Origin: an uncultured Nitrospirales bacterium
GTDB lineage: Bacteria > UBA10199 > JADGCS01
DNA: 64,000 bases
Direction: 5' to 3'
NCBI GenBank assembly: GCA_964526915.1
Contig: CAZGMS010000072.1
Location: 7,341 to 71,340 of the forward strand
Below are positions 1,429-29,505 of this stretch, piece after piece; the first letter of the stretch is position 1, and each line of letters opens with the position of its first letter. The position numbers and the translations under genes are program-made. The notes beneath the pieces are model-generated. The model was not told the DNA's origin and did no database searches. It worked only from the letters and a program-made list of their open reading frames with translations.

Positions 1429-1441
1429 ATTATTCATAAAT

Positions 1442-4546: not shown

Positions 4547-4591
4547 AATGATCAGTGCCTCAATTTTAGGATATTAGTCAAACATCAGCCA

Positions 4592-7042: not shown

Positions 7043-7152
7043 AGTACCACAAAACAGAAGTTGTTTTATCTAATAAAACACAAGACTATTTTTTCACGCA
7101 ACCTTACGCTAGAAAAAAGTGTGTCAAATAGCAACAAAGTAAGTGACTGGCA

Positions 7153-10348: not shown

Positions 10349-10391
10349 GGCAAAATTTCAATGCAAATTTCTAAGAGAGCATCAAAAGCTC

Positions 10392-11753: not shown

Positions 11754-11868
11754 TTCTCTATCTATTTCAAAGCTCCACCACTTTTATATAACAACCCCAA
11801 TATTGTACATTGAAAAATCTGTTTTATGCCCTAGCAACATAGCTGTTGAATCGTAGATTAATTCGAGA

Positions 11869-13338
11869 TCATCTTTTACAGATTGATTTTAGTAAGAATA
11901 CTATTTTGGATAATCTTGAAGGTAACACGATCTTCAATACAAGATAATATAATGCAAACCAAACAATAATCAAAAATGCCACAACCGCCACCCTCCAATT
12001 TAGTGAGTGGTGAACTCCAATAATATGATAGAGAAAAAAAACTAATGCTGATGGAATACTATTTACAAAAAAAACAACACCTGAAATTTTTATGAATTTA
12101 TAAATAGAAAAAGAATAGTAATGAGTCACCAACAATTGACCAAACAACCTATCAACAAAACCGTAAAGGCCAAAAGACAAGGCCACTCCAGTCAAATGCC
12201 ACATACTCCCAAAGCAAATAAAAGCTGGCATCACCACCACTCTGAATAGATTGAGCACTGTTTTAATGTGAGGTTTTCCGCTACTGAAGACCAAACTACT
12301 GATTATTCCGCCCCCACAAGTTATAAAAATTGAATAAATCGACATCAGACGAACTAACACAGTAATATTTGACCATTTTTGACCAAAAAATAACAAAACA
12401 ATAAAATCTGCAAAAATGATAACCAAAATTGGAAAAGGCAGAGATACTAAAGATGTTATCATCAGGGACTCCCAAAAATTATCTTCAATCTTTGCCTTGT
12501 TATCTTGTGATCTTGAATAAATAGGAAATAACACTTTATCGTACACACCATTGAGTAATGCAGGAAAAAATGTGACCATTCTGTGGGCTAGGTTGAAAGC
12601 ACCAACAGACGACATATCAAGAATTTTTCCAATAAAGAAAGTGTCAAACCTTGCCGACGAGGTAGCAAGAACTCGTCCAACTGATACCCAAATGCCAAAA
12701 GCTAATAGTTGTTTTGCCTCGAGAAATGATCCAAAACTTTTTGGAAGATATCGTGTGAACTGATAGCCAATAATTAGTGACAAGACTGAAGCAACAATTT
12801 TTCCAAAAATAATGCTGTGTGGTCCATAATGTTTCACCGCAAATATCACTGTAACAAATCCATAAACAAGGTGATTGCAAACATTGATAAAAGAAATTTG
12901 TTTAAACTTAAGAGACCTTTGCAATAAACAAGTCTGCAACGATGATAGTCCGATAAACACATAAGTAACAGCTGACCACCTCATCAAACCAAGTAATTGC
13001 TCTGTATTATAGAAACTTGCTAAAAAGGGAGCCAAAAAGAAAATTAGTAACGAAACAAACATTGTAAAAAACACAACGCAACTGAATGCGCTATCAATAA
13101 CAGTATCGTTGATGTCTTTTCTTTGAACAATAGCGATGGAAACTCCAAACTCAGAAAACACCTGCAAAATCACCTGTATGGCCAACACTACCATCACCAC
13201 ACCAAAATCAGCAGGCGTTAACAATCTTGCTAAAACAATACTCAGAATGAGAAGTATACCATTTTGAATTGAAGAACTTGAAAAAAACCAAAAAGCCCCT
13301 TTGACGGCGATTTGTGAATTATTTACTTTCATATACAC
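11869..13338 (-). CDS. wzx: Wzx-type O-unit flippase (MOP superfamily, Polysacc_synt family); flippase no. 1
   Basis: 489 aa and polytopic. N-terminal region GILLILSIVLARLLTPADFGVVMVVLAIQVIL...IVQRKD is typical of lipopolysaccharide biosynthesis/Wzx proteins. Confidence 0.8.
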   Translation of the reverse strand: MYMKVNNSQIAVKGAFWFFSSSSIQNGILLILSIVLARLLTPADFGVVMVVLAIQVILQVFSEFGVSIAIVQRKDINDTVIDSAFSCVVFFTMFVSLLIFFLAPFLASFYNTEQLLGLMRWSAVTYVFIGLSSLQTCLLQRSLKFKQISFINVCNHLVYGFVTVIFAVKHYGPHSIIFGKIVASVLSLIIGYQFTRYLPKSFGSFLEAKQLLAFGIWVSVGRVLATSSARFDTFFIGKILDMSSVGAFNLAHRMVTFFPALLNGVYDKVLFPIYSRSQDNKAKIEDNFWESLMITSLVSLPFPILVIIFADFIVLLFFGQKWSNITVLVRLMSIYSIFITCGGGIISSLVFSSGKPHIKTVLNLFRVVVMPAFICFGSMWHLTGVALSFGLYGFVDRLFGQLLVTHYYSFSIYKFIKISGVVFFVNSIPSALVFFLYHIIGVHHSLNWRVAVVAFLIIVWFALYYLVLKIVLPSRLSKIVFLLKSICKR

Positions 13339-13512
13339 TCAATATCCTTAGTAATCAGGACTTGTATGGTAAAAGAAATAGCAAGGCAAAACGTGTCTTG
13401 TTCTCTCCCCGCCAGTTTTTGTGAAATACGACATGATGAAAATTGTCTGTTTAGCTCCGAGAAAACGATCCCTTCACCGAAAGTGGCTAAGATCATGGTC
13501 GTGGAGAAATAA

Positions 13513-14706
13513 TCACCTAACGATCTTTTTCAATCCTTTAAAAAGGGGACTTATTATGGAGAAAATGAACGGATAAGGATCGCGCCAAGACATTGGTTCA
13601 ATTGTATAGCCTCGTCCCATCAGGCTTTTTATATAACCAAAAGGTCTCAGATATTCCTTGTTTTTTATAATGGCTATGAGATCACCAGCCAAATACCACC
13701 AGAGAATCTTATCAGGGTATTCCTGTCTGAATTTCGTTAATACAGGCAAGAAACCCTGTAGAGCCTCTTGGTACATCAAATAAGGCAGATTGATGCCACA
13801 TCTAATGGCAAGGCTATTTGACATACTCATGCGTCCATTAATTTCCATGAGTTTGAATTGACCATCGCGGGGATCTAATTTGAACTGAGTTCCCGCATAT
13901 CCATAATAGCCAATTTTACGCACGAGTTTGAGACTATAATCTAATAAGGTATCGTTCCAGGTTGTTTCTACTAAAGTGCCTGATAAAAATTTTCCCTGGG
14001 ATCTCTTTTTGTAATTGATCAATAACCCTGTCGGTTGACTGTTCTTGTTAAGTGTCATTAACACAGTCTCGATCCTCTCAAACTCTCCAGGAATAAGATC
14101 TTGCAGTAGTAATTCTCCACCAAATCCATCAAAGTGCTTATAATTTCCTAGCAATTCTCCTTCATGATTACAGATAACTCCTTTTGTCCCATAATGGCTC
14201 AACAACGTACTGGAATGCTCTGCCTTCATGAATAAAGGATAGCTGAGTTTCTCTTCCTTGGAATTCAGCAGACTTTCCAACTCAGATTGGCAAGTAATAT
14301 AATGTGTTTTTGGTATGGGAACACCTAATTCCTCAGCAATTTTGTAAGTGCGCCTCTTTTCCCGCACCAACTTTACTGTTTCCCAATCGGGAAAAGTTGT
14401 CTTCATTTCAGCTTTTAGTTCATTATGTCTTTTTGCCAAAACATCCAAATAACTGTCATTACCAGCTACAATCAATACAGATTCTACGCCAATTTCTCGA
14501 TCAAACCACTTGTTCAGTTTTTCGATGAAATCGACATCCTTTGAATCCAATTGCAATATTTTTTTTACAAAACGGGATTTTGTACACAAACCTTTACCAT
14601 CTGGAGAAACCATGTAAATTGGAATATCATATTTGCATAGACCTCTTATCGCACCAAAAGCCGAAATATGATCACCAAAGATGATTACGGGGGGTGTGTT
14701 TTTCAT
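13513..14706 (-). CDS. ATP-grasp carboxylate-amine ligase
   Basis: 397 aa. Pre-ATP-grasp N-terminus VIIFGDHISAFGAIRGLCKYDIPIYMVS and C-terminal GYAGTQFKLDPRDGQFKLMEINGRMS. ATGA overlap with the upstream decarboxylase gene. Confidence 0.75.
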   Translation of the reverse strand: MKNTPPVIIFGDHISAFGAIRGLCKYDIPIYMVSPDGKGLCTKSRFVKKILQLDSKDVDFIEKLNKWFDREIGVESVLIVAGNDSYLDVLAKRHNELKAEMKTTFPDWETVKLVREKRRTYKIAEELGVPIPKTHYITCQSELESLLNSKEEKLSYPLFMKAEHSSTLLSHYGTKGVICNHEGELLGNYKHFDGFGGELLLQDLIPGEFERIETVLMTLNKNSQPTGLLINYKKRSQGKFLSGTLVETTWNDTLLDYSLKLVRKIGYYGYAGTQFKLDPRDGQFKLMEINGRMSMSNSLAIRCGINLPYLMYQEALQGFLPVLTKFRQEYPDKILWWYLAGDLIAIIKNKEYLRPFGYIKSLMGRGYTIEPMSWRDPYPFIFSIISPLFKGLKKIVR

Positions 14707-15866
14707 CGAATGCCATCCTCAGTTAATAATTTCATGAATGCTTCCTTTTGTTCCCTAAGGTTGAAGTCCAGTGAACCAAGGTCACTCCGAATGCCTTTTC
14801 TGACGCGAATGTCAATAAAAGCAGAACCTTCAGTTGATAATAACGTTTTGATTGCATCGCGAAGAGCTTGTTCCGTTTCAACCGCCGCACCAACAGTCTT
14901 ATAACCCGAATTGTTGGCAATAGCTGTCAAATTTGCCACAAAACCAGCTGAGGGCTGGCCACCAACAGATTCGTGAGCACCATTATTCAAAACCACATGT
15001 AAAAAGTTCGGCAACTTGAGTTTTCCTGCCGTCGTCAAAGAACCCAAATGCATGATAGCCGCCGCATCTCCATCCAAACAAACAACAAGTCTCTTTTTTT
15101 GTGCCAAGGCAATACCAGAAGCAATTGAGCTGGTATGGCCCATAGCACCCACATTTAGAAAATCCTGATTGTGACCAACCCCGCTCAAGTTGCGTAAGCC
15201 GTAAAGCTCGCGTGTCGCTCTGCCTGTTGTTGCAACAAATATCGCTTCTTTCGGCACACACTGAAGAACACACTCAATCGCATTTTCCCGAGTCATGTTG
15301 TAAATACTATCTGAACCCTCCTCTTCTTTTTTCTTTCCTTTTTCAAACATCCCTTTCTTAGCAAGAAGCGCAACAGGGCCACATATCTTTTGAGCAGTGC
15401 GAACCGCCCACCTGGCGGCATCAAACGACCCCTCACCATCATTCTCTATTATTCTGAAGGGAATATCCATAGCCTCCAGTAATAAGGGCGTCAGTTCGCC
15501 CTGCTTTTTATGCTGTGCATGATCTGTAACGCCTGGATCACCGCGCCAGCCAATCAGCAATATCATTGGTATACCATACACCTCTTTGTTGGTGAGCGAA
15601 AGCAAGGGGTTCATGGCATTGCCTATTCCAGAATTTTGCATATATACCAGGGGCACGGTGCCCGTGGCAAAATGATAACCCGCGGCAAGTGCAACAGCAT
15701 TACCTTCGTTCGCCGCGATGACATGACGCTCACTGGGCAAATGAGCTTCGACATACTTGCAGAATTCATTAAGAAGTGAATCCGGCACGCCTGTTATAAA
15801 CGCAACCCCCTCATTTTGCAGGCACTCATAAAATGCTTTCTGATCGATCATAATCAATGTCCTCAC
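14703..15866 (-). CDS. ThDP-dependent 3-substituted-pyruvate decarboxylase (phosphonopyruvate/sulfopyruvate decarboxylase, fused alpha-beta type)
   Basis: 387 aa. N-terminus QKAFYECLQNEGVAFITGVPDSLLNEFCKYV is typical of Ppd/ComDE. ThDP motif CLDGDAAAIMHLG...NNGAHESVGGQ. Confidence 0.8.
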   Translation of the reverse strand: MRTLIMIDQKAFYECLQNEGVAFITGVPDSLLNEFCKYVEAHLPSERHVIAANEGNAVALAAGYHFATGTVPLVYMQNSGIGNAMNPLLSLTNKEVYGIPMILLIGWRGDPGVTDHAQHKKQGELTPLLLEAMDIPFRIIENDGEGSFDAARWAVRTAQKICGPVALLAKKGMFEKGKKKEEEGSDSIYNMTRENAIECVLQCVPKEAIFVATTGRATRELYGLRNLSGVGHNQDFLNVGAMGHTSSIASGIALAQKKRLVVCLDGDAAAIMHLGSLTTAGKLKLPNFLHVVLNNGAHESVGGQPSAGFVANLTAIANNSGYKTVGAAVETEQALRDAIKTLLSTEGSAFIDIRVRKGIRSDLGSLDFNLREQKEAFMKLLTEDGIR

Positions 15867-17215
15867 AACAAACGAAATAGACTATGGAAGTCTCTTTGTA
15901 CATTCCACACAATCTTTATGATTTCACGGCTTTCTTCCCCGGATTTATTTCCATACGCAGACAACGTGATAAACTTCTCTTTGATTTCATCATCTGAAAG
16001 CGGATTTTCAGGTTCTCCTTTGGGGAAATCAACTCTTTCAGTGTAAGATGCTCCATGACAAGTCTCAATTGTAACGATGGCGGCACGCTTTTGCGGCACT
16101 AGGGCTGTGATTTTCTCATCAGCGCAAACAACTATTCTTTTTGCTAGTGAAATGATCTCCGCATTGTTCACATTTTCTGCTGTAAACTCATCAAGGCCAG
16201 ATTTACCTTTCACAATGGCAACGGCCACACTGTATGGAATGCTCATTTTTGCTGAAGAGATGCCTCTGATTTCCGTGTGATCATGTTTGCCTATAACCCC
16301 TTTGTAAGTGGTCACCTTGATGCTTTTGATGTCAGAGACACAAAGACCATGGTTCAATTTGATCTTCAGTGTGGCTTCTATAGCTGGATGCGTGTGCCGA
16401 CAAGAAGCATATGACTTGAAATAAACTTTTTCGATCGAAAAAGGATCTCTATCATTTCTTTCCAAATGAGCCAAATCATGCTCTTTGGCCATCATCGATA
16501 AAAACCCTGTAGGGCCAGCGAGCACGTCATCAAGCCCCTTAAAACATGCTCTGCCCATGATTGATGATAACAAGCCAACCAGCGCAGCACGGCCTACATT
16601 AAATGGTTTTAAATCAGATCCATCTTCAATCACCTTAAGCATTCCTGATGCAGAAATTGCGGCCGCAGACAAGGCATCTTTCAGTTGAGTTTTGGTAAAA
16701 CTCAACATGGCCCCAATGCCCACGGCTGCCCCAAGGGAACCACAAGTGGCCGTAGGATGATAGCCACAATTGTAATGAGCCGGTTGCATGGCACTGGCAA
16801 TGCTAATTGCAGCTTCATAACCAATAATAACACCTTTAAGTAAAGCAGTGCCCTCGACTTTTTCTTTCTCAGCAACAGGTAACAGAGCCGATATAATGGG
16901 TGAACCTGGATGCAAAACACCAAAACGCACGCCATCGTCTAATTCAGCAATATGAGCACTAAGACCATTCATCAAAACAGCATTGATAAGACTCGCTTTT
17001 CTGTTAAAACCAATCACTGTGGCATCACTTTGAGTGTCATTCAAATATTTTAATAGCTCGTCACCTTTTTCTTTCATCATCCGTGCCCCAGCAAAAGTGG
17101 CACCCAGATAATCCAGCAAACACCTTTTCGCTTGTAACACAACAATATCGGGAAAATCCGTATGGCTCAAATGATAGAGAGTATCGATGAATTTATCAGT
17201 AAGGTTATCGGTCAT
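15863..17215 (-). CDS. MmgE/PrpD-family protein (2-methylcitrate dehydratase / cis-aconitate decarboxylase superfamily)
   Basis: 450 aa. N-terminus FPDIVVLQAKRCLLDYLGATFAGARMM and overall length fit PrpD-family proteins. Confidence 0.8.
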   Translation of the reverse strand: MTDNLTDKFIDTLYHLSHTDFPDIVVLQAKRCLLDYLGATFAGARMMKEKGDELLKYLNDTQSDATVIGFNRKASLINAVLMNGLSAHIAELDDGVRFGVLHPGSPIISALLPVAEKEKVEGTALLKGVIIGYEAAISIASAMQPAHYNCGYHPTATCGSLGAAVGIGAMLSFTKTQLKDALSAAAISASGMLKVIEDGSDLKPFNVGRAALVGLLSSIMGRACFKGLDDVLAGPTGFLSMMAKEHDLAHLERNDRDPFSIEKVYFKSYASCRHTHPAIEATLKIKLNHGLCVSDIKSIKVTTYKGVIGKHDHTEIRGISSAKMSIPYSVAVAIVKGKSGLDEFTAENVNNAEIISLAKRIVVCADEKITALVPQKRAAIVTIETCHGASYTERVDFPKGEPENPLSDDEIKEKFITLSAYGNKSGEESREIIKIVWNVQRDFHSLFRLL

Positions 17216-17226
17216 GTATTATTATT

Positions 17227-18183
17227 TTATCGGAAATAAAACTGGAAATAGCTGGGGCATTCTGATTTTGTATCTTCCCATGCCGCAGTAAACGCACTCA
17301 CTATTGTTTCAGGTAGAGGTCCTTTTTTGACTGCAAAAAGATTCTGCTTTAACTGGTCCCTATTTGAAGCACCTATTATCATTCCATCACCTTCGCTTTT
17401 GTCAAGGAGTGAATGAAAAGCAAGCCACCGATAGGCCGCTTCAGCGGTCTCTATTCCTGATTTTCGGCATGCTATTGTAAGAACATTGACTGCCTCAAAA
17501 TAGGATTTTTTCCAATACCTGTCACGATAACTCTGAAGTCGCGCAAAGCGACCAGACATGGGCTTTTCGTCAAAATTGATGTGTTTTCCTGACAACATGC
17601 CACCAGCCAGAGGATTGAATGCGTAAAAACGCATGCCCAACTTTCTTAAAGCGGGAAACAACTCGCCCTCAACGTTGCGGGTCAATCCGTTATACATCCC
17701 CTGATACACACTTGGCCTGAGCCAGCCACGTTCTTTGCAAAGATGCCATATGTCCACAACCATCCAGGCGGGAAAATTACTTAATCCCAGTTCCTTAATT
17801 TTCCCCTGTTCATGGAGGTTTGCACACGCTTCCAAGGCCCCCTCAATGGGGGTTTGAGCATCTGGAAAATGAAGATACAAAATATCAACCGAATCACGGC
17901 ACAGGCGGCGCAGTGATTCTTCAAACTGCATGATCACCGCAACACCATCAAGTTTGCCCGTAACCCGGGGATGAACTTTGGTCGCAAGACAAAGAGAATC
18001 TTCCGTAAACTCATTCAGAAAAGTGCCAAGAATTTTTTCGGTTTCGCCTTCGTTATATACGTAAGCCGTGTCCAATTCATGGTAACCTGCTTCAATGAAG
18101 CATTTCACCATGGCACGACTACCCTCGGTATCCACCTGAGGACCAAAAGTCATTGTTCCCAATATCAGTTTCATCATATCCAT
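17227..18183 (-). CDS. Aldo-keto reductase
   Basis: 318 aa. LGTMTFGPQVD and ELDTAYVYNEGETEKILG match the AKR catalytic Asp/Tyr region. Confidence 0.85.
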   Translation of the reverse strand: MDMMKLILGTMTFGPQVDTEGSRAMVKCFIEAGYHELDTAYVYNEGETEKILGTFLNEFTEDSLCLATKVHPRVTGKLDGVAVIMQFEESLRRLCRDSVDILYLHFPDAQTPIEGALEACANLHEQGKIKELGLSNFPAWMVVDIWHLCKERGWLRPSVYQGMYNGLTRNVEGELFPALRKLGMRFYAFNPLAGGMLSGKHINFDEKPMSGRFARLQSYRDRYWKKSYFEAVNVLTIACRKSGIETAEAAYRWLAFHSLLDKSEGDGMIIGASNRDQLKQNLFAVKKGPLPETIVSAFTAAWEDTKSECPSYFQFYFR

Positions 18184-18198
18184 TGGAGGTGCCCTTTA

Positions 18199-19089
18199 CT
18201 AAATTGACCCTTTTGCTGAGCACAAAGCATCGCTATCATAACTGTCAATAACTCGTTTGACAAGATTGACCTGCTTGGCTCGCTTTTTTGCCTCAGCCAC
18301 AGTCGTTTCCCAACCATGCGTTTTGGCAACTGAGCCTCCTGTTTTAAGATATATAGGGGAACCCACCCGTATCATTTCTGGCACTTCATAATGGCGAATA
18401 AAACCACCGGACGACGCGGGATTTTCTGTATGAATATCGATCGGGATGCTGATGGCTTGCCTTATAGCGGCAAGCATTTGCAGTTGAATGTCCCTGACCG
18501 GGTTGATCGAATTTGCTCCTACATTTTCCAGAAGTTTGGCGGAACAAGGATTGCCATGACCGCAATGGGCAGATATTTTGAATTTACAATCAGAAGGAAG
18601 CTCACCTTGCTTGCGCATTTCATCTAACACCCACAAAAGTCCTTCATCATAAATCAAAAAACCTCTACACCCCAATTTGCCAGCACGTTTAACATCCTCG
18701 ATGGCACGAACGATTTGTTCCTGCCCACGGAGCCGGAGCCCCATTTTTTGACCTTCCTCCGTGTGAACTGATGCGCTCGTATCGTAAGTTGCCCGCGGAC
18801 CGATGGCCAGCACGAGTTCCACCTGCCATTGTTTTGCCAACGCCACCATTTCATTTATTTCATCATCAGTCAGAATCATGATGCCCTTTGTTTGCGTAAC
18901 GCGGTGGATAACGGCACCAAAGGTATCCAATTCTTCAAGCAAAGCCTTCATTGAGCCGGGTCCCTGTATACCAGGCACCTCAAACCTGTACTGCGCGCCA
19001 TCCGCGAATCGCTTTGCAGACGATGGCAGATCATACGCATCTCCTGATGGTAATCCTATTTTATTAAGAAACAACCTGGTCTCTTTCAT
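18199..19089 (-). CDS. Conserved-looking hypothetical enzyme, family not recognised (possible alpha/beta-barrel)
   Basis: 296-aa ORF with tight operon spacing (15 and 40 nt). Alternating beta/alpha-like pattern with KISAHCGHG and IPIDIHTENP. It is not a PEP mutase by motif, and it lacks the Cys signature of U32 proteins. Confidence 0.45.
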   Translation of the reverse strand: MKETRLFLNKIGLPSGDAYDLPSSAKRFADGAQYRFEVPGIQGPGSMKALLEELDTFGAVIHRVTQTKGIMILTDDEINEMVALAKQWQVELVLAIGPRATYDTSASVHTEEGQKMGLRLRGQEQIVRAIEDVKRAGKLGCRGFLIYDEGLLWVLDEMRKQGELPSDCKFKISAHCGHGNPCSAKLLENVGANSINPVRDIQLQMLAAIRQAISIPIDIHTENPASSGGFIRHYEVPEMIRVGSPIYLKTGGSVAKTHGWETTVAEAKKRAKQVNLVKRVIDSYDSDALCSAKGSI

Positions 19090-19129
19090 TTTTTCATCCC
19101 CCTAATGGTTCATCCATCTGTTTTCTTGT

Positions 19130-20005
19130 CTACCCCAGAACAATACTATTTTTTCTTGGATCGTAGCAACATCCCATCCGCAGGCTGACAATGCGCACAC
19201 CGCTTGCCCTTTGTGGCCCAATTTCTACAAATGAATTTAATGCCGTAATGCTACCCCCAATCCCCAGCGGCCCACAAAAAGTATTGTTCAGTGTTGCCGT
19301 AATCAATGCTTCAATCTCGTTTTCGTTTCCAAAAGTCTTGTTTGCCATAGCATCGAGCATGAGGCAAGTCGCTTCATAATGTGTTCTTCCTATCCCAACA
19401 GCAGGAACGCAGGGTGTACATCCAAGCAAACCTACCATTTCTACTGCCCAACCGGCAATTTCCGTGCTGATTCGAGAAGAATCGTGGTGGTGAAATACTC
19501 TATAGGTGCGGGATCGTATTTCCGGCCCCCCTCCAAGCATCATCACAGTCAAACGAAGCTGACTGCCTTTGATTGTTTTCATTCTAATCGGGGCAGATGT
19601 CAACATTCCCGAATCTTCGTAAAGCCCCTTTGTTTGTACGAGCCTTTCCATATCATTGCCACACACAGCCATCGGACGGCCTGGTAAAGCTCGCAAACCT
19701 GCTACAATACCATTATCGACAATTTCTAAAAGTTTTCCAACATTGCCTTCAATGTCAGCCTCATCACCTACCTCAAGCAAAACATGGGGCACCCCTGTAT
19801 CGTTGCATAAAGGTAATTTGTTTTTTTCTGCGACGATCGCATTTTCTAATATCATCTCAAGAATCCACTTCGCTTTCTGCTCTGTTTCCCTCGCAATGGC
19901 ATTCTCATAGGCCAGACGCTGATCATGACGAAAACTTGTGCTCGCTTTTATCAATGCCTCGGCAGACGCTTCTAGAATTTCAGATAGTTTTATTGCCACG
20001 CACAC
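19130..20005 (-). CDS. Fe-S hydro-lyase, tartrate/fumarate subfamily, alpha subunit
   Basis: 291 aa. LPLCNDTGVPHVLLEVG corresponds to the (Q/C)DTG motif of class I fumarase/TtdA. Additional Cys residues are available as cluster ligands. Confidence 0.75.
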   Translation of the reverse strand: MCVAIKLSEILEASAEALIKASTSFRHDQRLAYENAIARETEQKAKWILEMILENAIVAEKNKLPLCNDTGVPHVLLEVGDEADIEGNVGKLLEIVDNGIVAGLRALPGRPMAVCGNDMERLVQTKGLYEDSGMLTSAPIRMKTIKGSQLRLTVMMLGGGPEIRSRTYRVFHHHDSSRISTEIAGWAVEMVGLLGCTPCVPAVGIGRTHYEATCLMLDAMANKTFGNENEIEALITATLNNTFCGPLGIGGSITALNSFVEIGPQRASGVRIVSLRMGCCYDPRKNSIVLG

Positions 20006-20020
20006 CCTTTTTAGTTCTGT

Positions 20021-20551
20021 TCATTTGACATGAAAAATTGATTCCCCGTTGGCCGCGGCTATGATGCCGGGCAAGCCACGAATCGTTAATTCATGCAACG
20101 CTTCCATGCCCTCTTCTTCAAACGCTATCACCCTTTTAGAAATCAATCGACTCTGAAAAAGAGCTGATGTCGGCGGCACAACAATAAAAATGGCCCCATG
20201 TCTGGATATATCTTTGACTGTTTGCTTTTTAAGAACACCTTTTCCGATATGCAACCGAACACCCGCTTCAGACAGAATACCCATCGTTCCTTCGATTTCT
20301 TCTTTATTGCTTGAGGTTGGGCCAAAACCGGCTGGGCTAAAAGCGGCATGCATAAAAGCCGCACCTTCCATGGTAATCGGTAGTTCCGTTATCGTGCCAT
20401 CTTTTATCATTTTAGCAATCTTCGGCAATATGGCATCTCTGGCGGTATAAACCACACCGTGTATTTCCACACGACTACCGACTAGCACATTCGACAAATC
20501 AGTCCTCACAGGTGTTTCAATTTTAAGAAGCAAATTAACACATCCTCTCAT
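20021..20551 (-). CDS. Fe-S hydro-lyase, tartrate/fumarate subfamily, beta subunit
   Basis: 176 aa. GVVYTARDAILPKIAKMIKDG matches the G-x-I-Y-T-x-RDAAH-type motif of class I fumarase C-terminal domain/TtdB. Adjacent to the alpha subunit. Confidence 0.75.
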   Translation of the reverse strand: MRGCVNLLLKIETPVRTDLSNVLVGSRVEIHGVVYTARDAILPKIAKMIKDGTITELPITMEGAAFMHAAFSPAGFGPTSSNKEEIEGTMGILSEAGVRLHIGKGVLKKQTVKDISRHGAIFIVVPPTSALFQSRLISKRVIAFEEEGMEALHELTIRGLPGIIAAANGESIFHVK

Positions 20552-20593
20552 GGCATATTAGGCATCTTGAAAATACAGATTAAAGCACGGCTA

Positions 20594-21736
20594 TTATTTT
20601 AAGATGAGTTTTAAGTAGGTTGCTTCATTTTCAATAACTCCGTATGCTTTTGCCCGACTGATGATTTTTTTCGCCCAGTGTTTGTGTGGGTTTATTTCAT
20701 TCATTTTATTGGCCTTCACACTTTTAACCACACCTCCTGGTGTTTCTAATATTTGTAGGGCATCCTCAAATTCTTCCCTGATCACCGTCTGCATGGCATT
20801 GACATATTTGGCGTGCGAGGGGTGAATGATTGTTTTACCGACAAATCCATTGGCCTTATCAAGAATAACTTCCCTCATCAAGCCATCAACCGCTTCATTT
20901 AAGATCGGACTTCTGGTCAACAAAGAACGATGAATATCATCGGCCAATAAATTATCAAGATTATCCCCTTTGTGCACCAAAAAATACTCCCACACTGGTC
21001 CAGACACCGTGTAGTTATCTTCCTCTCTGCTGAAAAAATTCAACACATCAGACAAACAATCTTTGACTGTCAAGATATCATAAATGGAGTAGTTGATCCC
21101 TCGCCTCACTCCAAACATCGATGAAATATCAGTTCCTCCAATCCTGATATTCAGAACAAGTTTTTTAAAAGGCTCCATCATTGTTCTGATCTGACTCAAC
21201 TCATCAGTTCTCAATTCCTTATACGCTATTGTTTTTCCCTCAAGAATGGGCATGCCATACAAAGAAACTTTTAATTTACTATTCAGAGATTCAAGACAAT
21301 TGAAGTACTCTTGACAATTATGACTACAGAACTTGGGGAACGCAAATCCAGACAAAACGTTAGATTGTTCGCTCGTTAACTTCTCAACAAACCCCTTGAA
21401 TTGCTCTGGATGACGCACGCGCAGAAAGATTAATGGTATTTCATCGTGTGTGATCGCCCCTAAAGCCAAGGCTTCTGCAATTTTGTTCAATTGACTTAAC
21501 ACACTGTTCTCGGCCACTGGCAAGATCATTTCATCAACAGCATCTTCAAAGTCCATGACAATCGATGTTGCCTCAAGCACATCCTTTTTTAATAATTTAT
21601 CAACAATATTTTGCGTGCCCGGCATATAGAGTGTGGCGCCTAGACAATACTGCAACAAATCTTTATCAGTGAATTTGTTAAATTCTATTGGTTCCAAAAA
21701 AAATTGGGTGTTTGGATGATATCTGTGGTGCTTCAT
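20594..21736 (-). CDS. HpcH/HpaI aldolase / citrate lyase beta (CitE)-like lyase, long form
   Basis: 380 aa. Motifs GATLYMPG, IVMDFEDAV, IFLRVRHP and GFVGKTIIHPSHAKYVN parallel the CitE family motifs. Confidence 0.7.
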   Translation of the reverse strand: MKHHRYHPNTQFFLEPIEFNKFTDKDLLQYCLGATLYMPGTQNIVDKLLKKDVLEATSIVMDFEDAVDEMILPVAENSVLSQLNKIAEALALGAITHDEIPLIFLRVRHPEQFKGFVEKLTSEQSNVLSGFAFPKFCSHNCQEYFNCLESLNSKLKVSLYGMPILEGKTIAYKELRTDELSQIRTMMEPFKKLVLNIRIGGTDISSMFGVRRGINYSIYDILTVKDCLSDVLNFFSREEDNYTVSGPVWEYFLVHKGDNLDNLLADDIHRSLLTRSPILNEAVDGLMREVILDKANGFVGKTIIHPSHAKYVNAMQTVIREEFEDALQILETPGGVVKSVKANKMNEINPHKHWAKKIISRAKAYGVIENEATYLKLILK

Positions 21737-21824: not shown

Positions 21825-22901
21825 TCACAATACAGTGCCATATTTCATGGCTCGATACCTCACACAATAAAAATATAGCGAATAACTGATAAGGATAATG
21901 GTGAAAATAATAATGACTATACTGTTACTAAGTGTTTTAATATAATAAAAAGCCAGTGCGGCCAATATGATAGTCTGCAAATAATAAAAAAGTGTTATCG
22001 ACTTCACCTCCCAACCCATCATGTGAAGCAACTGATACGGATGCATCCTGTGCGCCTGATATATTTTATGCCCCTGACACAGCCGCCAAATGACGGTAAA
22101 CAATGTTTCCATTATAAAATTAGCAAATAAAATGGGCGTGATCAAAAAAGGTGTGTGTGATTGATCATAGTTAGCCGCCAAGATGGCAATGGCACCAAAA
22201 GAAAATCCCAAAAAAGTACTGCCCACATCGCCCATAAATATGGTGCCTTTGGGAAAATTGAATATCAAAAAACCTAAAGCAGCGGCCGCCAACATATAAC
22301 TCACATGAAACACAAAACCACTACCCATCATGAACGTAATCAGTGTAAAACCCAGCCCCACCAGCACAGCCGTACCTGCAGCCAAACCATTGATCCCATC
22401 CATAAAGTTAAAGGCGTTTGTGATGCCCACAATCCATAAAATGGTCAGCGGATAACCCCATATTCCCAACTCTACATTTCCGAAATAAGGAATGGTGAGC
22501 TTTTTGATTGTGAGGCCAAAGGCCATCAGTATGATCACGCCAACAAACTGACTGAGGAACTTATAGGCAAAGGCCTTATTAGTGATGTCATCATACAAAC
22601 TGACAACAGCAATCATGAGAGATGATAAAAACAAACCCCAGTATGGCTTGGCGCCCACAAAATTATCATTCTGCAAAACATAGTAGAGCAAAATGCCTAT
22701 GCAATACGATACGACAATGGCAATTCCTCCACTACGAGGTATAGCACCCGTGTGAGAACTTCTTGCACACGCTGTATCCATGATCCTGACATATTTACGG
22801 CAAAGATATGTAAAGCATGCTGACAAAAATACCAGCATGATAAAAAAAGCGGTATTCGAAACATAAAACATGCTATGATTTTTCAAAAGTTCTGTCAGCA
22901 T
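21825..22901 (-). CDS. Polyprenyl-phosphate HexNAc-1-phosphate transferase (MraY/WecA/WbpL family); initiating enzyme no. 2
   Basis: 358 aa and polytopic. Motifs YDDITNK, NAFNFMDGINGLAAG and IFMGDVGSTFLGF. Confidence 0.9.
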   Translation of the reverse strand: MLTELLKNHSMFYVSNTAFFIMLVFLSACFTYLCRKYVRIMDTACARSSHTGAIPRSGGIAIVVSYCIGILLYYVLQNDNFVGAKPYWGLFLSSLMIAVVSLYDDITNKAFAYKFLSQFVGVIILMAFGLTIKKLTIPYFGNVELGIWGYPLTILWIVGITNAFNFMDGINGLAAGTAVLVGLGFTLITFMMGSGFVFHVSYMLAAAALGFLIFNFPKGTIFMGDVGSTFLGFSFGAIAILAANYDQSHTPFLITPILFANFIMETLFTVIWRLCQGHKIYQAHRMHPYQLLHMMGWEVKSITLFYYLQTIILAALAFYYIKTLSNSIVIIIFTIILISYSLYFYCVRYRAMKYGTVL

Positions 22902-27599: not shown

Positions 27600-28727
27600 C
27601 TATACAAAGAAACCGGAAACTCCATTGATCACCTGATCTATAAGGGGATCCAAACCTGCCCATAAAGGAAGTCTTAAAATGCGTTCACTTGTATGTTCTG
27701 TGTTCATCATTGTTCCAAAACACCTGGCATATTTAGACCCATAAGGAGAGCTGTGTAATGGCACATAATGTGATACGGCATTGATACCCATTTCTTTGAG
27801 ATGTGACATGATATCTGATCTTGTTCTAGAATCTTCGAGCAACAAATAATACATATGAGCGTTGTGTACACATCTGGCAGAAATCATTGGCCGTCTCAAA
27901 ACACCTTTCTGTTCTAAAACCAAAAAGGCGTCATGATATCGTTGCCAAAGACACATTCGATTATCAGTTATTTTCTTTGCCTCATCAAGCTGTGCATAAA
28001 GAAATGCCGCCACCATTTCACCTGGTAAAAAGGAAGACCCCAAATCCTGCCATGAATATTTATCAACCTCACCTCTTAAGAACTGCTTTCGATTCGTTCC
28101 CTTCTGCCAAATAATTTCCGCTCTCCGCACAAAACGTTCATCATTCATTAACAATGCACCGCCCTCACCGGAAGAAATATTTTTTGTGTCGTGAAAACTG
28201 AGACATCCCATCTGTCCAATCGTTCCAAGATATTGGTTGTTATATTGAGACATGATAGCCTGTGCGGCATCTTCGATAACCAACAGATGATGTCTTTTCG
28301 CTATGGATGTGATGGTTTCCATTTCACAACCAACGCCCGCATAGTGGACGGGAACGATGGCTTTTGTTTTTGGGGTGATCGCATCCTCTATGATCTTTTC
28401 ATCGATGTTCAAGGTGTCTGACCTGATATCAACAAAGACAGGGACTCCACCACGCAGAACAAATGCATTGGCTGTAGAAACAAATGTGAATGAGGGCATG
28501 ATGATCTCATCACCTTGCTGAATATCGGCTAATAAAGCGGCCATTTCCAACGCGCCCGTGCATGAATGCGTCAGCAGAACCTTTTGACATCCAAGTTTTT
28601 TTTCCAACCATTCATGACATTTTTTTGTGAAGAGACCATCACCAGACAAACGCCGATCCTCTAACACCTTTTGAATATACTTGATTTCATGACCTGTAAT
28701 GAATGGCTTATTGAATGGTATTTTCAT
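27600..28727 (-). CDS. wecE: dTDP-4-keto-6-deoxyhexose 4-aminotransferase (WecE/RffA-type)
   Basis: Long collinear matches to E. coli WecE as I recall it: MKIPFNKPF, SCTGALEMAALLADIQQGDEIIMPSFTFVSTANAFVLRGGVPVFVDIR, SFHDTKNISSGEGGALL. Confidence 0.85.
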   Translation of the reverse strand: MKIPFNKPFITGHEIKYIQKVLEDRRLSGDGLFTKKCHEWLEKKLGCQKVLLTHSCTGALEMAALLADIQQGDEIIMPSFTFVSTANAFVLRGGVPVFVDIRSDTLNIDEKIIEDAITPKTKAIVPVHYAGVGCEMETITSIAKRHHLLVIEDAAQAIMSQYNNQYLGTIGQMGCLSFHDTKNISSGEGGALLMNDERFVRRAEIIWQKGTNRKQFLRGEVDKYSWQDLGSSFLPGEMVAAFLYAQLDEAKKITDNRMCLWQRYHDAFLVLEQKGVLRRPMISARCVHNAHMYYLLLEDSRTRSDIMSHLKEMGINAVSHYVPLHSSPYGSKYARCFGTMMNTEHTSERILRLPLWAGLDPLIDQVINGVSGFFV

Positions 28728-29505
28728 CATTGATTTTTTCGGCCACACAGACCAGGGAACCTCCAAAGGGGAATGACAAACCGTAAGCGATCATCAACAT
28801 TTCAACATCACAAACCCGTTCGAAGATCCAATTGATCCATCGTGCAATTTTGAATTCAGAAAGAATGTCCTGAGTTGAATTCGATTTTAAACTCTTTTTC
28901 AACCAGATTCTAGAAACAAACATGAACGGCAACAAGAGGGCCATGAAAGACGAAACCCAAACCATTCTGAACCCGCTTTTTTTTAGTTTGATGGTAAGTT
29001 CTTCACAAGTGTACCTTCGTTTATGGCAAGCAACCTCATCCTGAGAACTCCACAACCAAGCATGTTGCGGCACAGTCAGAATAAGCCCCCCACCCTTTTT
29101 CAGACCCTGATGAAATTGATTCAAGACACACTCATCTTCCAGAACATGTTCCAGAACATCAAACGCCCCAATAACATCATATTCTTCCCTATACGGCATT
29201 TGCCGCGCGTCCATTTGGAACAGTGACGCATTTTTGAGTCTCTTCTTTGCAAAGCTCAAACCCTCAGAAAACAAATCGCTCCCTGAAATCTGAGTCTCTG
29301 GAAATGACTTTTCGATGGCCGACAAAACAAAGCCAGTTCCACAACCCACCTCAAGAAAAGATTTCATCTGTGGGAAAAATTTTTTAAGAGCCCACAAAAT
29401 CAGGCGGTTTCTTGAACAGAACCAGAAGTTCCGAGATTCTAGTTTCTGGATTTGCCAAAAATAGTCACTATCAAAACCTTGTGAAAGATTAACTGCGCCT
29501 ATCAT
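28708..29505 (-). CDS. Class I SAM-dependent methyltransferase
   Basis: 265 aa. Motif I FLEVGCGTGFVLSAI and post-II IGAFDVLEHV. Confidence 0.8.
   Translation of the reverse strand: MIGAVNLSQGFDSDYFWQIQKLESRNFWFCSRNRLILWALKKFFPQMKSFLEVGCGTGFVLSAIEKSFPETQISGSDLFSEGLSFAKKRLKNASLFQMDARQMPYREEYDVIGAFDVLEHVLEDECVLNQFHQGLKKGGGLILTVPQHAWLWSSQDEVACHKRRYTCEELTIKLKKSGFRMVWVSSFMALLLPFMFVSRIWLKKSLKSNSTQDILSEFKIARWINWIFERVCDVEMLMIAYGLSFPFGGSLVCVAEKINDENTIQ

Follow-up and report, generated by a model that had tools for sequence, protein, structure and literature searches.

The DNA analysed here is a stretch of 64,000 nucleotides from an uncultured Nitrospirales bacterium, referred to below as the window. 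Its ORF listing contains eight consecutive co-directional genes on the minus strand, W1 to W8, transcribed from position 21736 to position 13513, at the same coordinates that a first-pass annotation of the sequence had given. These genes and the relevant glycan genes around them are as follows.

11869..13338, minus strand: Wzx-type flippase, immediately downstream of the cassette (Pfam Polysacc_synt_3, 227 bits)
13513..14706, minus strand: W8, ATP-grasp enzyme (PF15632, 36.7 bits vs 29.1)
14703..15866, minus strand: W7, ThDP-dependent 2-oxoacid decarboxylase of the Ppd/ComDE type (TIGR03297, 419.5 bits)
15863..17215, minus strand: W6, MmgE/PrpD-family protein, proposed dehydratase; core member (Pfam N- and C-terminal domains, 160 and 138 bits)
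17227..18183, minus strand: W5, aldo-keto reductase, AKR (Pfam Aldo_ket_red, 190 bits)
18199..19089, minus strand: W4 ("UNK"), 296-aa TIM-barrel enzyme of an undescribed family; signature of the module (without Pfam or NCBIfam match)
19130..20005, minus strand: W3, alpha subunit of the same Fe-S hydro-lyase as W2 (Pfam Fumerase, 166 bits)
20021..20551, minus strand: W2, beta subunit of an Fe-S hydro-lyase, class I fumarase / tartrate dehydratase type (Pfam Fumerase_C, 70 bits)
20594..21736, minus strand: W1, CitE/HpcH-type C-C lyase; core member (PF15617 C-C_Bond_Lyase, 363 bits)
21825..22901, minus strand: WecA/WbpL-type initiating glycosyl-1-phosphate transferase (Pfam Glycos_transf_4, 128 bits)
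27600..28766, minus strand: WecE-type dTDP-4-amino-4,6-dideoxyhexose transaminase (PRK11706, 594.6 vs 375 bits; TIGR02379, 575 vs 435 bits)
31267-32340, minus strand: RmlB (Pfam GDP_Man_Dehyd/Epimerase)
32337-33206, minus strand: RmlA (Pfam NTP_transferase)

Pfam and NCBIfam profile searches confirmed all the family calls made from the sequence at first pass, and the motifs quoted for them were found: GATLYMPG, MDFEDAV and GKTIIHPSH at residues 33, 61 and 300 of W1, YTARDA at residue 35 of W2 and CNDTG at residue 67 of W3. The placement of the cassette between a WecA-type transferase and Wzx also stands, with Glycos_transf_4 and Polysacc_synt_3 proteins on its two sides. When re-measured in transcription order, the spacers from W1 to W6 are 42, 15, 40, 15 and 11 nt, matching the 11-42 nt reported, and they are followed by two 4-nt overlaps. 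Both overlaps had been described as ATGA. Read directly, this is so for W7/W8, but the W6/W7 overlap is GTGA, in which the GTG start codon of W7 overlaps the stop codon of W6; with an alternative start at an in-frame ATG 15 nt downstream, the junction becomes an 11-nt spacer with no overlap. W8 is probably translationally coupled to W7 through the ATGA overlap. The GC content of W8 is 0.38 against 0.43-0.47 for W2-W7, and that of W2-W7 is unlike the flanking glycan genes.

Distribution and architecture of the module

Relatives of W4 occur in at least 581 GTDB species from many phyla. We surveyed the architecture of 48 loci, all at least 15 kb long, free of duplicates and each from a different species. 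The core consists of W4, a PF15617 C-C lyase and a PrpD-family protein (45/48 loci), with the lyase and PrpD each present in 45 of the 48. Since the same gene families stand together in 45 of 48 independent loci, the cassette is not a chance assembly. It had been asked whether the order of the eight genes recurs; this order is not the conserved unit, which is instead the core with a hydratase and a tailoring module, in variable order. The hydratase is one of two types, Fe-S FumAB (38-39 loci) or Lyase_1 plus a "cyclase" (7 loci), which never co-occur; one or the other is found in 45/48 loci. This exchange resembles the known replacement of class I by class II fumarase. The tailoring module, which usually adjoins W4, is also swappable and comes in three kinds: Ppd with AKR, as in the window, a D-2-hydroxyacid dehydrogenase (2HDH) and an Ldh_2 dehydrogenase. 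Ppd with AKR is found in 18 loci, 2HDH in 13, Ldh_2 in 11, 2HDH with Ldh_2 in three and 2HDH with Ppd in one, so that the kinds are almost mutually exclusive, locus L080 being the only one to combine a dehydrogenase with Ppd and AKR. All of these tailoring enzymes, the AKR-paired Ppd, 2HDH and Ldh_2, act on a 2-oxoacid.

The link to glycan synthesis extends beyond the window, as at least 42 of the 48 loci contain glycan genes (DegT, RmlA/B, initiating transferases, Wzx, GT2, Wzy, pyruvyl transferase), and in Tissierella the W4 module lies in a locus resembling those for Maf/NeuB flagellin glycosylation. Aminotransferases had been proposed as a source of free amines, and in 37/48 loci a sugar aminotransferase of the DegT family indeed lies no more than 10 kb away, frequently right beside the module. 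RmlA and RmlB are near the module in 12-13 of the 48, and orthologues of the WecE-type transaminase (45-56% identity) lie within 10 kb of it in seven other loci. In the window, this transaminase is the candidate source of the amine for acid attachment, and RmlA and RmlB are predicted to supply it with dTDP-4-keto-6-deoxyglucose. The module is undescribed: our literature searches found no publication describing it and, as the first-pass annotation had stated, no described pathway with such an enzyme set.

Properties of the individual proteins

W4 had been called unassignable, and profile searches again gave no Pfam or NCBIfam match. This protein is nevertheless the signature of the module and by far its best conserved member, with a median identity of 76% to relatives in other phyla as against 43-54% for the partner proteins. 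Members of the family are about 297 aa long. The structure model is a confident TIM barrel, distantly similar to U32 and CutC proteins, whose nearest folds in Foldseek are U32 peptidase, class II aldolases, YdjI and the ICL/PEPM lyases including PrpB; no close solved relative was found, nor any sequence similarity to a PDB entry or to PEP mutase. Judged by the modelled fold and by the neighbours of its more distant homologues, W4 may be an enzyme of carbanion-type chemistry. A homologue with 52% identity belongs to an operon of GntR, TctCBA (TctABC), PrpD and a DHDPS-type aldolase. One more distant homologue adjoins an HpcH-like gene, others adjoin sugar or polyol catabolic genes, and on an Enterobacter plasmid a homologue lies near 2HDH, a class I/II aminotransferase and a nucleotidyltransferase.

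The C-C lyase W1 matched the RipC and CitE models only weakly, in its C-terminal part, and no PDB sequence; the median identity of this lyase among the 45 loci which carry it is 54%. In loci L022, L040 and L046, PF15617 is replaced by citrate lyase CitCDEFXG (CitC/CitD-E/CitF/CitX-G), whose CitF clears the citrate-lyase alpha equivalog cut-off, and because of this replacement the C-C lyase step may by analogy resemble that of citrate lyase. For W2, a type found in 39/48 loci, every NCBIfam equivalog scored below its cut-off, while W3 (38/48) clears the subfamily-domain model TIGR00722 (105.5 vs 100.65 bits) and no equivalog. Among NCBIfam models, the Lyase_1 member best matches 3-carboxymuconate cycloisomerase; Lyase_1 and the cyclase would fit the formation of a lactone followed by its hydrolysis, a net hydration. 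W6 scored 40.6 with the PrpD equivalog, far below the cut-off of 575.

W7 clears the phosphonopyruvate decarboxylase model TIGR03297, whose cut-off is 312.5 bits, and its best PDB matches are both subunits of a putative phosphonopyruvate decarboxylase. W5 is its obligate partner, AKR and Ppd being together in 19/19 loci, and we propose that it reduces the aldehyde made by W7. An ATP-grasp gene adjoins the module in 38/48 loci, in keeping with the role of terminal ligase suggested earlier; W8, however, is not the ATP-grasp usual for the module but a separate lineage, as judged by sequence. It showed sub-threshold matches to CPS-like NCBIfam models and no BLASTP similarity to the ATP-grasp protein that occupies the corresponding slot in L131, the closest relative. 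Only one close homologue was found, with 73% identity, and it too comes after a homologue of Ppd (78%). The common ATP-grasp family (40-47% identity) is found in Ppd-type loci as well as in dehydrogenase-type ones. As it serves both, and the Ppd route removes C1, the carboxylate which it activates cannot be C1.

Discussion

What could this module make? We give about an even chance to a citrate- or methylcitrate-like route leading to a hydroxy acid that is amide-linked to a 4-amino-4,6-dideoxyhexose. We infer alike how the reactions are ordered, what W4 does, which acid is formed and that it is attached to the amino sugar. The four core functions would form a sequence like that of the citrate or methylcitrate cycle, in which W1 would join a 2-oxoacid with an acetyl or acyl thioester, the resulting citrate-type hydroxy acid would be dehydrated by W6, and W2/W3 would add water back at the neighbouring carbon. 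W4, as a putative metal-dependent lyase or decarboxylase, would then release a 3-substituted pyruvate keeping the distal carboxylate, that is, a 2-oxo-dicarboxylate. In other loci a D-2-hydroxyacid dehydrogenase or Ldh_2 reductase would convert it to a 2-hydroxy-diacid, while in the window W7 would strip C1 and W5 would reduce the aldehyde to an omega-hydroxy acid one carbon shorter. Finally, the ATP-grasp enzyme, here W8, would link the remaining carboxylate as an amide to the 4-amino-4,6-dideoxyhexose provided by the WecE-type transaminase with RmlA and RmlB.

The pairs 2-hydroxyglutaryl / 4-hydroxybutyryl and malyl / 3-hydroxypropanoyl are structural precedents for such products. N-Acyl groups formed by hydroxy acids and attached by their distal carboxyl are known (PMC3210612), and the earlier remark that such groups often lack assigned genes agrees with the documented 4-malyl, 2-hydroxyglutar-5-yl and 4-hydroxybutyryl substituents (PMC3210612). 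The Tenacibaculum maritimum O-antigen carries 2-hydroxyglutaryl and its cluster is described without a lyase or ATP-grasp, so the known precedents need not come from a W4 module. With oxaloacetate or 2-oxoglutarate as the 2-oxoacid, a module to build the skeleton would be unnecessary, which is a point against our scheme; that a whole module is given over to the carbon skeleton suggests a rarer homologue, for example a C6-C7 or branched acid. Also against the scheme are the separate lineage and different GC content of W8, the seven of 19 Ppd-type loci without an adjacent ATP-grasp of the common family, and the hexapeptide acyltransferases of some loci, which could acetylate the same sugar amine.

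These last two points would suit another arrangement, to which we give a low probability. Here the ATP-grasp enzyme would activate a uronic acid or amino acid and couple it to an alcohol or amine made from the cassette product, as modelled on the glucuronamide system of Campylobacter jejuni, or the hydroxy acid would be an ester or glycosidic bridge in the backbone, with no amide-forming step by an ATP-grasp enzyme. UDP-glucose/GDP-mannose dehydrogenase genes adjoin the module in L053 (two copies) and L131, the ATP-grasp slot is held by LAL-like, PylC-like, W8-type or ATPgrasp_ST proteins, which are unrelated subfamilies, and the acid in known structures bears a glycosyl or O-acetyl group on its own hydroxyl (PMC3210612). 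The module, however, has no aminotransferase by which the aldehyde from W7 could become an amine, those nearby being only sugar-type DegT proteins, whose frequency speaks for a free sugar amine as acceptor; and ATP-grasp enzymes rarely form esters. Could the product instead be a phosphonate or sulfonate? W7 would then be a true phosphonopyruvate decarboxylase, as its equivalog match and PDB relatives would have it, and W5 would reduce phosphonoacetaldehyde to 2-hydroxyethylphosphonate, of which an exopolysaccharide conjugate is known (PMC8942020). W4 would make phosphonopyruvate from PEP in lieu of PEP mutase, 2HDHs elsewhere would form phosphonolactate, and W1, W6 and W2/W3 would carry out TCA-like steps on phosphonates, as in FR-900098 and pantaphos biosynthesis. 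The tailoring types match known or predicted drains of phosphonopyruvate, namely Ppd with a reductase, VlpB-type 2-Hacid_dh and malate dehydrogenase, and in Paenibacillus larvae fumarase and ATP-grasp genes were noted beside Ppm (PMC8942020). The position of the tailoring modules next to W4, the ICL/PEPM-superfamily structures among its Foldseek matches, and the neighbourhood on the Enterobacter plasmid, which resembles a small phosphonate gene cluster, point the same way, and the best matches of Ldh_2, 2HDH and Lyase_1, all below cut-offs, are to enzymes of sulfonates or phosphorylated substrates, against a carboxylic acid. On the other side, the structural matches of W4 are generic and its sequence is unlike PEP mutase, whose motif EDKxxxxxNS was absent from the window and from 82 loci (L001-L082), except for a single chance match in L033. 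One ATP-grasp family serves Ppd-type and dehydrogenase-type loci, but 2-hydroxyethylphosphonate would offer it no carboxylate; neither a cytidylyltransferase nor a LicD-type transferase is conserved with the module; the families of W1, W6 and W2/W3 all act on carboxylic acids, which also suit the catabolic-looking variants (citrate lyase; TctABC with aldolase) better. Because no PEP mutase was found in the window or in these loci, we regard a phosphonate as a minority reading, no more probable than the nucleophile or backbone unit just described.

It is even less probable, in our opinion, that an organic-acid catabolic or central-metabolic operon (fermentation or a TCA bypass) was inserted into the glycan locus and has no role in it. 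The first-pass annotation had held that its proposal would fall if homologous cassettes were normally catabolic operons. Surroundings that look catabolic are confined to a minority, 3 of 48 loci and the more distant W4 homologues beside sugar or polyol genes, together with the 52%-identity homologue in the GntR operon. The three loci, L022, L040 and L046, have two copies of W4, PrpD, FumAB, 2HDH and Ldh_2 beside CitCDEFXG, a C45 amidohydrolase-type protein and an Opp-type ABC transporter, and no glycan genes; the deviating GC content of W2-W7 would also accord with an insertion. But the catabolic variants are better explained as breaking down the same acid, and repeated independent insertion of such operons beside DegT and ATP-grasp genes is unlikely. 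The loci with glycan genes span many phyla, and the module is co-directional and tightly packed among these genes. In the window no transporter or regulator lies in or next to the cassette, and its overlaps and short spacers suggest co-transcription with the locus. The original interpretation, a non-sugar unit attached by the terminal ligase to an amino sugar, is partly supported. W1-W8 are a single copy of a glycan-decorating module that is widespread and has been spread horizontally, and most likely this module makes a small non-sugar acid or alcohol which decorates a sugar polymer of the cell surface.

Organization of the cassette

The first-pass annotation had placed eight consecutive minus-strand genes, W1 to W8, at window positions 21736 to 13513 in the order of transcription, and the ORF listing finds all eight there. 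The sequence motifs which it quoted are all present in the cassette proteins. It had also proposed profile searches of the eight proteins, and the Pfam and NCBIfam searches confirmed each family it had named. The spacers within the cassette measure 42, 15, 40, 15 and 11 nt and are followed by two 4-nt overlaps; the adjoining genes W2 and W3 are separated by 15 nt. Both overlaps had been read as ATGA, which is correct for W7/W8, but the W6/W7 overlap is GTGA, and this junction becomes an 11-nt spacer should the ATG 15 nt downstream be the true start of W7. W8 is probably translationally coupled to W7. A scan for promoters and terminators inside the cassette gave no signal exceeding shuffled expectation. 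The GC content is mosaic, with 0.43-0.47 in W2-W7, 0.39 in W1, 0.38 in W8 and 0.356 in the downstream block of glycosyltransferase, putative Wzy and Wzx genes (7153-13338). Judged from base composition, this would fit a module gained by transfer and a separate origin of W8.

W1 belongs to the PF15617 C-C_Bond_Lyase family (363.3 bits vs a gathering threshold of 28.4, profile positions 2-320 of 320) and scores below the equivalogs RipC (28.7 vs 375 bits) and citE (21.4 vs 443), the match lying in the C-terminal ~60 residues. The neighbouring genes W2 and W3, with 70.2 bits to Fumerase_C (W2) and 165.6 bits to Fumerase (W3), encode a pair of the two-subunit class I (Fe-S) fumarase/L-tartrate dehydratase type. 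Among the NCBIfam models, the alpha subunit W3 remains below the best fumarate hydratase equivalog (115.8 vs 276 bits) and the beta subunit W2 below the best beta-subunit model (65.3 vs 238), while the TtdA/TtdB models give 36-38 bits vs cut-offs of 264-365. From these profiles we would place W2 and W3 in the class I fumarase superfamily, without orthologue-level assignment. W5 is an aldo-keto reductase (AKR) by Pfam. W6 carries both Pfam domains of the MmgE/PrpD family (159.9 and 138.3 bits) and scores far below the equivalog cut-offs for the 2-methylcitrate dehydratase PrpD (40.6 vs 575 and 30.2 vs 458 bits).

W1 shares its CitE-like motifs with the citrate lyase system CitCDEFXG and the CitE-like acyl-CoA lyases (malyl-, citramalyl- and citryl-CoA lyases; RipC). 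PF15617 is also matched by a true CitD-E fusion (42 bits), and in three loci from other genomes CitDEF takes the place of W1. However, W1 has no acyl carrier protein, transferase or ligase partners. Together with the ATP-grasp protein W8, which matches PF15632, W1 also recalls the Ter-operon-linked biosynthetic module from which Anantharaman, Iyer and Aravind in 2012 reportedly defined both PF15617 and PF15632. The cassette differs from it in the absence of TerD, phosphoribosyltransferase and HAD genes and in its other partners and context, and the ATP-grasp found beside the module in other loci is LAL- or PylC-like, not PF15632.

The surrounding glycan genes

The cassette had been described as lying between an initiating transferase and Wzx, and it is indeed flanked by a Glycos_transf_4 gene (21825-22901) and a Wzx gene (11869-13338). 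Every family-assigned ORF of at least 120 aa in the 64-kb window is on the minus strand. The gene content is that of a Wzx/Wzy-dependent polysaccharide locus, with Glycos_transf_4, Polysacc_synt_3, GT1/GT2, RmlA/B, DegT, Wzz and a PglF/E/D/C-like set.

Features of the window outside the cassette
1442-7042, minus strand, complete PglF/PglE/PglD/PglC-like set: Polysacc_synt_2 dehydratase, DegT, PglD_N hexapeptide acetyltransferase, Bac_transf initiating transferase
3419-4546, minus strand, Wzz, within the PglF/E/D/C-like region
27600-28766, minus strand, WecE-type dTDP-4-amino-4,6-dideoxyhexose transaminase (594.6 bits vs a cut-off of 375)
31267-33206, minus strand, RmlB and RmlA
42431-43795, minus strand, DUF7033 protein, candidate second decoration module
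43797-44522, minus strand, PHP-domain protein, same candidate module
44497-45681, minus strand, PF15632 ATP-grasp, 23% identical to W8, same candidate module
45645-47155, minus strand, two methyltransferases, one of TylF type, same candidate module
47160-49046, minus strand, AsnB-type amidotransferase, same candidate module, followed by the second flippase
49115-50425, minus strand, second flippase

The presence of two differing initiating transferases, one PglC-like and one WecA-like, and of two flippases suggests that the window holds at least two glycan loci in tandem on the same strand. The region 42431-49046 is possibly a second decoration module. Elsewhere in the window, a heparinase II/III-like protein (33203-34816) adjoins a 735-aa Zn-ADH/GFO/IDH/MocA oxidoreductase fusion (34813-37020) inside the biosynthetic glycan locus. 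A DegT-family aminotransferase (53205-54461) overlaps a radical-SAM/SPASM protein (54458-55393), and the two may be another unusual sugar-tailoring pair. No Pfam match was obtained for the ORFs 10392-11753 (453 aa) and 8403-9230 (275 aa), located between the glycosyltransferases and Wzx; the 453-aa ORF occupies the position expected of the Wzy polymerase.

A recurrent module around W4

Relatives of W4, the 296-aa signature protein of the cassette, were sought in one genome per GTDB species, and at least 581 species carry one. The 79 best loci were retrieved, and they come from Bacillota, Bacteroidota, Balneolales, Cloacimonadota, Desulfobacterota, Spirochaetota, Chitinivibrionales, Bdellovibrionota, Victivallales, Verrucomicrobiota (Pelagicoccus) and Hyphomicrobiales. 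Neighbourhoods were surveyed by tblastn and all-against-all ORF clustering in the 48 non-duplicate loci of at least 15 kb. Of these 48 loci, 45 have the C-C lyase and 45 have PrpD. FumA/FumB occur in 38-39 and a pair consisting of a Lyase_1 protein (ADSL/CMLE-like) and a PF04199 "cyclase" in 7; the two arrangements are never found together, and 45 loci have one or the other.

The genes which usually adjoin W4 in the surveyed loci form a tailoring module of three alternative types: a Ppd-type decarboxylase with an AKR (18 loci), a D-2-hydroxyacid dehydrogenase (2HDH; 13 loci) or an Ldh_2 dehydrogenase (PF02615; 11 loci). Both dehydrogenases are present in 3 further loci, 2HDH with Ppd in 1 and none of these in 2, and wherever Ppd occurs AKR accompanies it (19/19). 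A loosely related LAL/PylC-like ATP-grasp family was found in 38/48 loci and a DegT aminotransferase in 37/48; clustering revealed no further conserved gene family. The Ruminococcus MAG locus L080, the sole surveyed locus with two tailoring types together, pairs 2HDH with PrpD and has, beyond DegT, RmlA and RmlB, a complete PrpD-AKR-Ppd-W4-lyase-FumBA set. Nearest to the cassette is the locus of a Desulfatiglandales genome, with the order DegT, C-C lyase, W4, AKR, PrpD, Ppd, ATP-grasp, FumB, FumA, Wzx, GT2, GT2, MBOAT. Thus, of the fixed eight-gene order which the first-pass annotation had asked about, only the joint recurrence of the gene families stands, whereas the order itself varies among loci.

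It had likewise asked whether the cassette always sits inside glycan loci. This is so for at least 42 of the 48: glycan marker families were found in 41, and of the seven others, the locus L053, examined by Pfam, contains GT2, Wzy_C, pyruvyl transferase, Wzx and two UDP-sugar dehydrogenases. In Tissierella the module is beside DegT, RmlA and RmlB in a locus with NeuB, Maf and CMP-sugar synthetase, typical of flagellin glycosylation, and in Algoriphagus its neighbours on either side are Wza-type and Wzz-type export genes. Three loci, however, have neither glycan genes nor a PF15617 gene, namely L022 (Sedimentibacter), L040 and L046 (Clostridia). There, CitC, a CitD-E fusion, CitF and a CitX-G fusion are upstream of a W4-containing set in the order 2HDH, W4, PrpD, second W4, FumB, FumA, Ldh_2, followed by a C45-family amidohydrolase or acyltransferase and an Opp-type ABC transporter (the L022 cluster spans 1205-20651). 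CitF of these loci exceeds the citrate-lyase alpha equivalog cut-off. From this gene content we infer that the PF15617 step is the equivalent of a citrate-lyase-type cleavage or condensation, and some anaerobes probably degrade the same acid after freeing it from its amide.

A further operon, in locus L087 (521-8240), consists of a GntR/FCD regulator, a W4 homologue (52% identity), TctC/B/A, a PrpD-family protein and a DHDPS-family aldolase, and may serve to degrade a related tri- or dicarboxylate. Another W4 homologue, of 46% identity, adjoins an HpcH-like gene. The association of W4, PrpD and a C-C lyase or aldolase is therefore not confined to glycan loci. More distant W4 homologues, among them those of Thermomicrobium, Streptomyces, an Enterobacter plasmid, an MttB cluster and a hydantoinase cluster, have surroundings too varied to fix the substrate. 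On the Enterobacter chuandaensis plasmid pE20191216 (L084, 7898-17966), a homologue of 35% identity is in an apparent small-molecule gene cluster with a kinase-like phosphotransferase, a 2-hydroxyacid dehydrogenase, a class I/II aminotransferase, iron-containing redox enzymes, an M14 peptidase, an MFS transporter and a nucleotidyltransferase.

The ATP-grasp position

W8 is a member of the ATP-grasp superfamily (PF15632, 36.7 vs 29.1 bits; CPSase_L_D2, 32 vs 19.8), and it occupies the slot filled by an ATP-grasp in the closest relatives of the cassette. A reading of W8 as the conserved terminal ligase was rejected. W8 is outside the LAL/PylC-like family found in the survey and was a singleton in the clustering; BLASTP detected no similarity between it and the ATP-grasp which fills this slot in locus L131. 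The only close relative found in the metagenome scan (L099, 73% identity) is also downstream of a Ppd homologue. A conserved slot with a changing occupant weakens the specific ligase claim for W8 and fits varying acceptor substrates. FemAB/Acetyltransf_6-type proteins are encoded in the window (39099-40118) and in L053 (5392-6441), in the latter directly upstream of the module PrpD and in a locus without the common ATP-grasp; a protein of this type may be an alternative attachment enzyme.

W4 and its family

W4 has no match in Pfam or NCBIfam. Of its 6191 detectable homologues, the best 120 share 77-100% identity with it and belong to Bacillota, Bacteroidota and other phyla, and the wider family comprises 975 clusters at 50% identity. 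Relative to the proteins of the window, the median identity is 76% for W4, compared with 54% for W1, 53% for W5 and W7, 48% for W3, 46% for W2 and 43% for W6. An AlphaFold (AF2) model from a shallow alignment reached a pLDDT of 61.9; the model used here, from a diverse alignment (pLDDT 92.5, pTM 0.90), shows a (beta/alpha)8 barrel with confidence. Profile searching against the PDB yielded no significant match (best E 0.19, to AgaY) and no sequence similarity to ICL/PEPM proteins. In Foldseek, PrpB, 4lsb and CPEP mutase matched the model with E values of 1e-6 to 1e-5 and a TM of about 0.46, and other TIM barrels scored at least as well. The residues invariant in the wider family include E37, D148 and R210, and R135, R232, K249, N180 and S173 are nearly invariant.

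Several known enzyme types were considered for W4. The alignment of the wider family contains no conserved cysteine, which counts against a U32-type Fe-S centre, and a U32-type Fe-S hydroxylase was set aside on this ground. A canonical PEP mutase, ComA or a DRE-TIM synthase has no sequence support, and the structural matches are generic. We conclude that W4 founds an undescribed family of TIM-barrel enzymes. W4 is probably a metal-using enzyme that stabilises a carbanion or enolate in the manner of aldolases, lyases and decarboxylases, and the fold leaves the reaction itself unspecified. The W4 gene was also sought in E. coli genomes, with the aim of reaching a known O-antigen structure, and no match was found.

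Discussion

It is a known idea that genes for a non-sugar substituent are embedded in a glycan locus and that the substituent is attached by a ligase. In the literature searched we found no description of the enzyme set of the cassette, of its modular architecture or of the W4 family. From the observed modular architecture, mutual exclusivities and contexts we infer an order of reactions. W1 would carry out the condensation and W4 would act last, as lyase or decarboxylase, so that the core yields a 2-oxoacid. In between, PrpD and the hydratase could each contribute one half of an aconitase-type isomerisation of the kind seen in the methylcitrate cycle. The alternative of FumAB or Lyase_1 with the "cyclase" mirrors the replacement of class I by class II fumarases. 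The Lyase_1 member has its best match in 3-carboxymuconate cycloisomerase (467 bits, below the cut-off), and a lactonisation by this enzyme, followed by hydrolysis by the "cyclase"-family hydrolase, would amount to a hydration overall. All three tailoring alternatives use 2-oxoacids: the dehydrogenases would give a 2-hydroxy acid, while decarboxylation by Ppd and reduction by AKR would give a primary alcohol one carbon shorter.

Such a route resembles the methylcitrate cycle (PrpC-PrpD-aconitase-PrpB), in which synthase, dehydratase, hydratase and C-C cleavage or decarboxylation lead to a 2-oxoacid, and 2-oxoacid chain elongation (LeuA/LeuCD/LeuB, homocitrate pathway) follows the same synthase-to-2-oxoacid logic. 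The methylcitrate cycle further shares a PrpD-family protein with the module, and PrpB-type lyases are among the structural neighbours of W4. However, the condensing enzyme of the module is of the CitE/HpcH type (PF15617) instead of the citrate-synthase or LeuA type, its hydratase is a class I fumarase-type enzyme or Lyase_1 with a hydrolase and not an aconitase, and it is located in glycan loci rather than in propionate catabolism or amino-acid biosynthesis.

What might the acid be? Orthologous ATP-grasps, 40-47% identical, occur in Ppd-type and dehydrogenase-type loci alike, so the carboxylate which is activated should be the distal one, and this points to a 2-oxo-dicarboxylate. The product pairs predicted in this way would correspond to known N-acyl groups, 2-hydroxyglutar-5-yl with 4-hydroxybutyryl, and 4-malyl. 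4-D/L-malyl on amino sugars has been described in Pseudoalteromonas rubra, Vibrio vulnificus and Shewanella algae, 2-hydroxyglutar-5-yl on bacillosamine in Tenacibaculum maritimum and 4-hydroxybutyryl on Fuc3N in Pseudoalteromonas (PMC3210612). In such groups the distal carboxyl forms the amide with a 3- or 4-amino sugar, and the hydroxyl is often glycosylated or O-acetylated (PMC3210612). They include 2-hydroxy-diacids and the omega-hydroxy acid one carbon shorter, the pair which the dehydrogenase and the Ppd and AKR alternatives would be predicted to give. Malate and 2-hydroxyglutarate, however, could be had without a skeleton-building core. The published description of the T. maritimum O-antigen cluster mentions no lyase or ATP-grasp and does not support synthesis of its 2-hydroxyglutaryl group by the module. 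In the window, the likely acceptor would be the dTDP-4-amino-4,6-dideoxyhexose made by the WecE-type transaminase with RmlA/RmlB. Seven other loci have a WecE-type orthologue at no more than 10 kb from the module; since other loci have DesI/PseC-like DegT types, the acceptor sugar probably varies between loci.

Could W7 be a true phosphonopyruvate decarboxylase? W7 exceeds the equivalog cut-off of TIGR03297 for this enzyme (419.5 vs 312.5 bits, profile positions 1-359 of 360), a score which calls for explanation. W4 would then be a new C-P bond-forming enzyme, or another source of a 3-substituted pyruvate, feeding W7 without PEP mutase, and the module, widespread as it is, would be a way to phosphonate-bearing glycans (2-hydroxyethylphosphonate or phosphonolactate) that bypasses PepM. 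Phosphonate-decorated glycans are known, and the enzymes known or predicted to draw on phosphonopyruvate are Ppd with a reductase, VlpB-type 2HDH and malate-dehydrogenase-type enzymes (PMC8942020). The module resembles the early PepM-Ppd-PhpC route to 2-HEP in its Ppd and aldehyde reductase, and the PepM-VlpB route to phosphonolactate in its alternative 2-Hacid_dh enzyme; ATP-grasp and fumarase-type neighbours are a further common feature (PMC8942020). We nevertheless consider this reading improbable. There was no PF13714/PepM match in the 56 window ORFs scanned by Pfam (131-55393), and a search with the EDKxxxxxNS pattern found no PepM-like ORF in the window, including 8 ORFs at 55395-63986, or in the 82 loci L001-L082. 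The reductase is an AKR rather than an Fe-ADH, the module is not accompanied by a conserved cytidylyltransferase or LicD gene, and its core enzymes are from carboxylic-acid families. Moreover, 2-hydroxyethylphosphonate has no carboxylate for the common ATP-grasp to activate, and the catabolic variants involve citrate lyase and a tricarboxylate transporter.

There is also a resemblance to coenzyme M biosynthesis: the best match of Ldh_2 is L-sulfolactate dehydrogenase (ComC), the second-best family of W7 is sulfopyruvate decarboxylase (ComDE), and Lyase_1 scores on XcbD of the XcbC/XcbD lyases, all below cut-off. However, ComC and ComDE act consecutively, whereas Ldh_2 and the decarboxylase of the module are mutually exclusive, and neither ComA nor cysteate synthase accompanies the module. 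As it also has no C-S bond-forming step, we set a sulfonate product aside.

The antigenicity, the phage-receptor specificity and the charge of bacterial surface glycans depend in large part on non-sugar substituents, and to our knowledge the genes are known for few of these substituents. The interest of the module rests on its breadth, on the very high conservation of W4 (about 76% across phyla) and on its cultured carriers, several in number, which make it open to testing. Cultured strains with the module include Tissierella simiarum MSJ-40, Mediterraneibacter massiliensis Marseille-P2086, M. glycyrrhizinilyticus An427, Eubacterium segne BX4, Algoriphagus sp. NG3, Desulfobacter latus AcRS2 and Pelagicoccus sp. 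SDUM812002. At least 581 species carry it, among them many gut and rumen Firmicutes, Bacteroidota, Desulfobacterota, Spirochaetota and Verrucomicrobiota. Solving it would give a function to thousands of proteins annotated as "hypothetical protein" or "peptidase" and would tie a gene set to a class of glycan substituents. It would also be a direct test of whether Ppd-type decarboxylases act outside phosphonate metabolism or in a PepM-independent phosphonate route, which, if true, would break with the rule that nearly all phosphonate biosynthesis is marked by pepM. The swappable tailoring modules would explain serotype-like variation.
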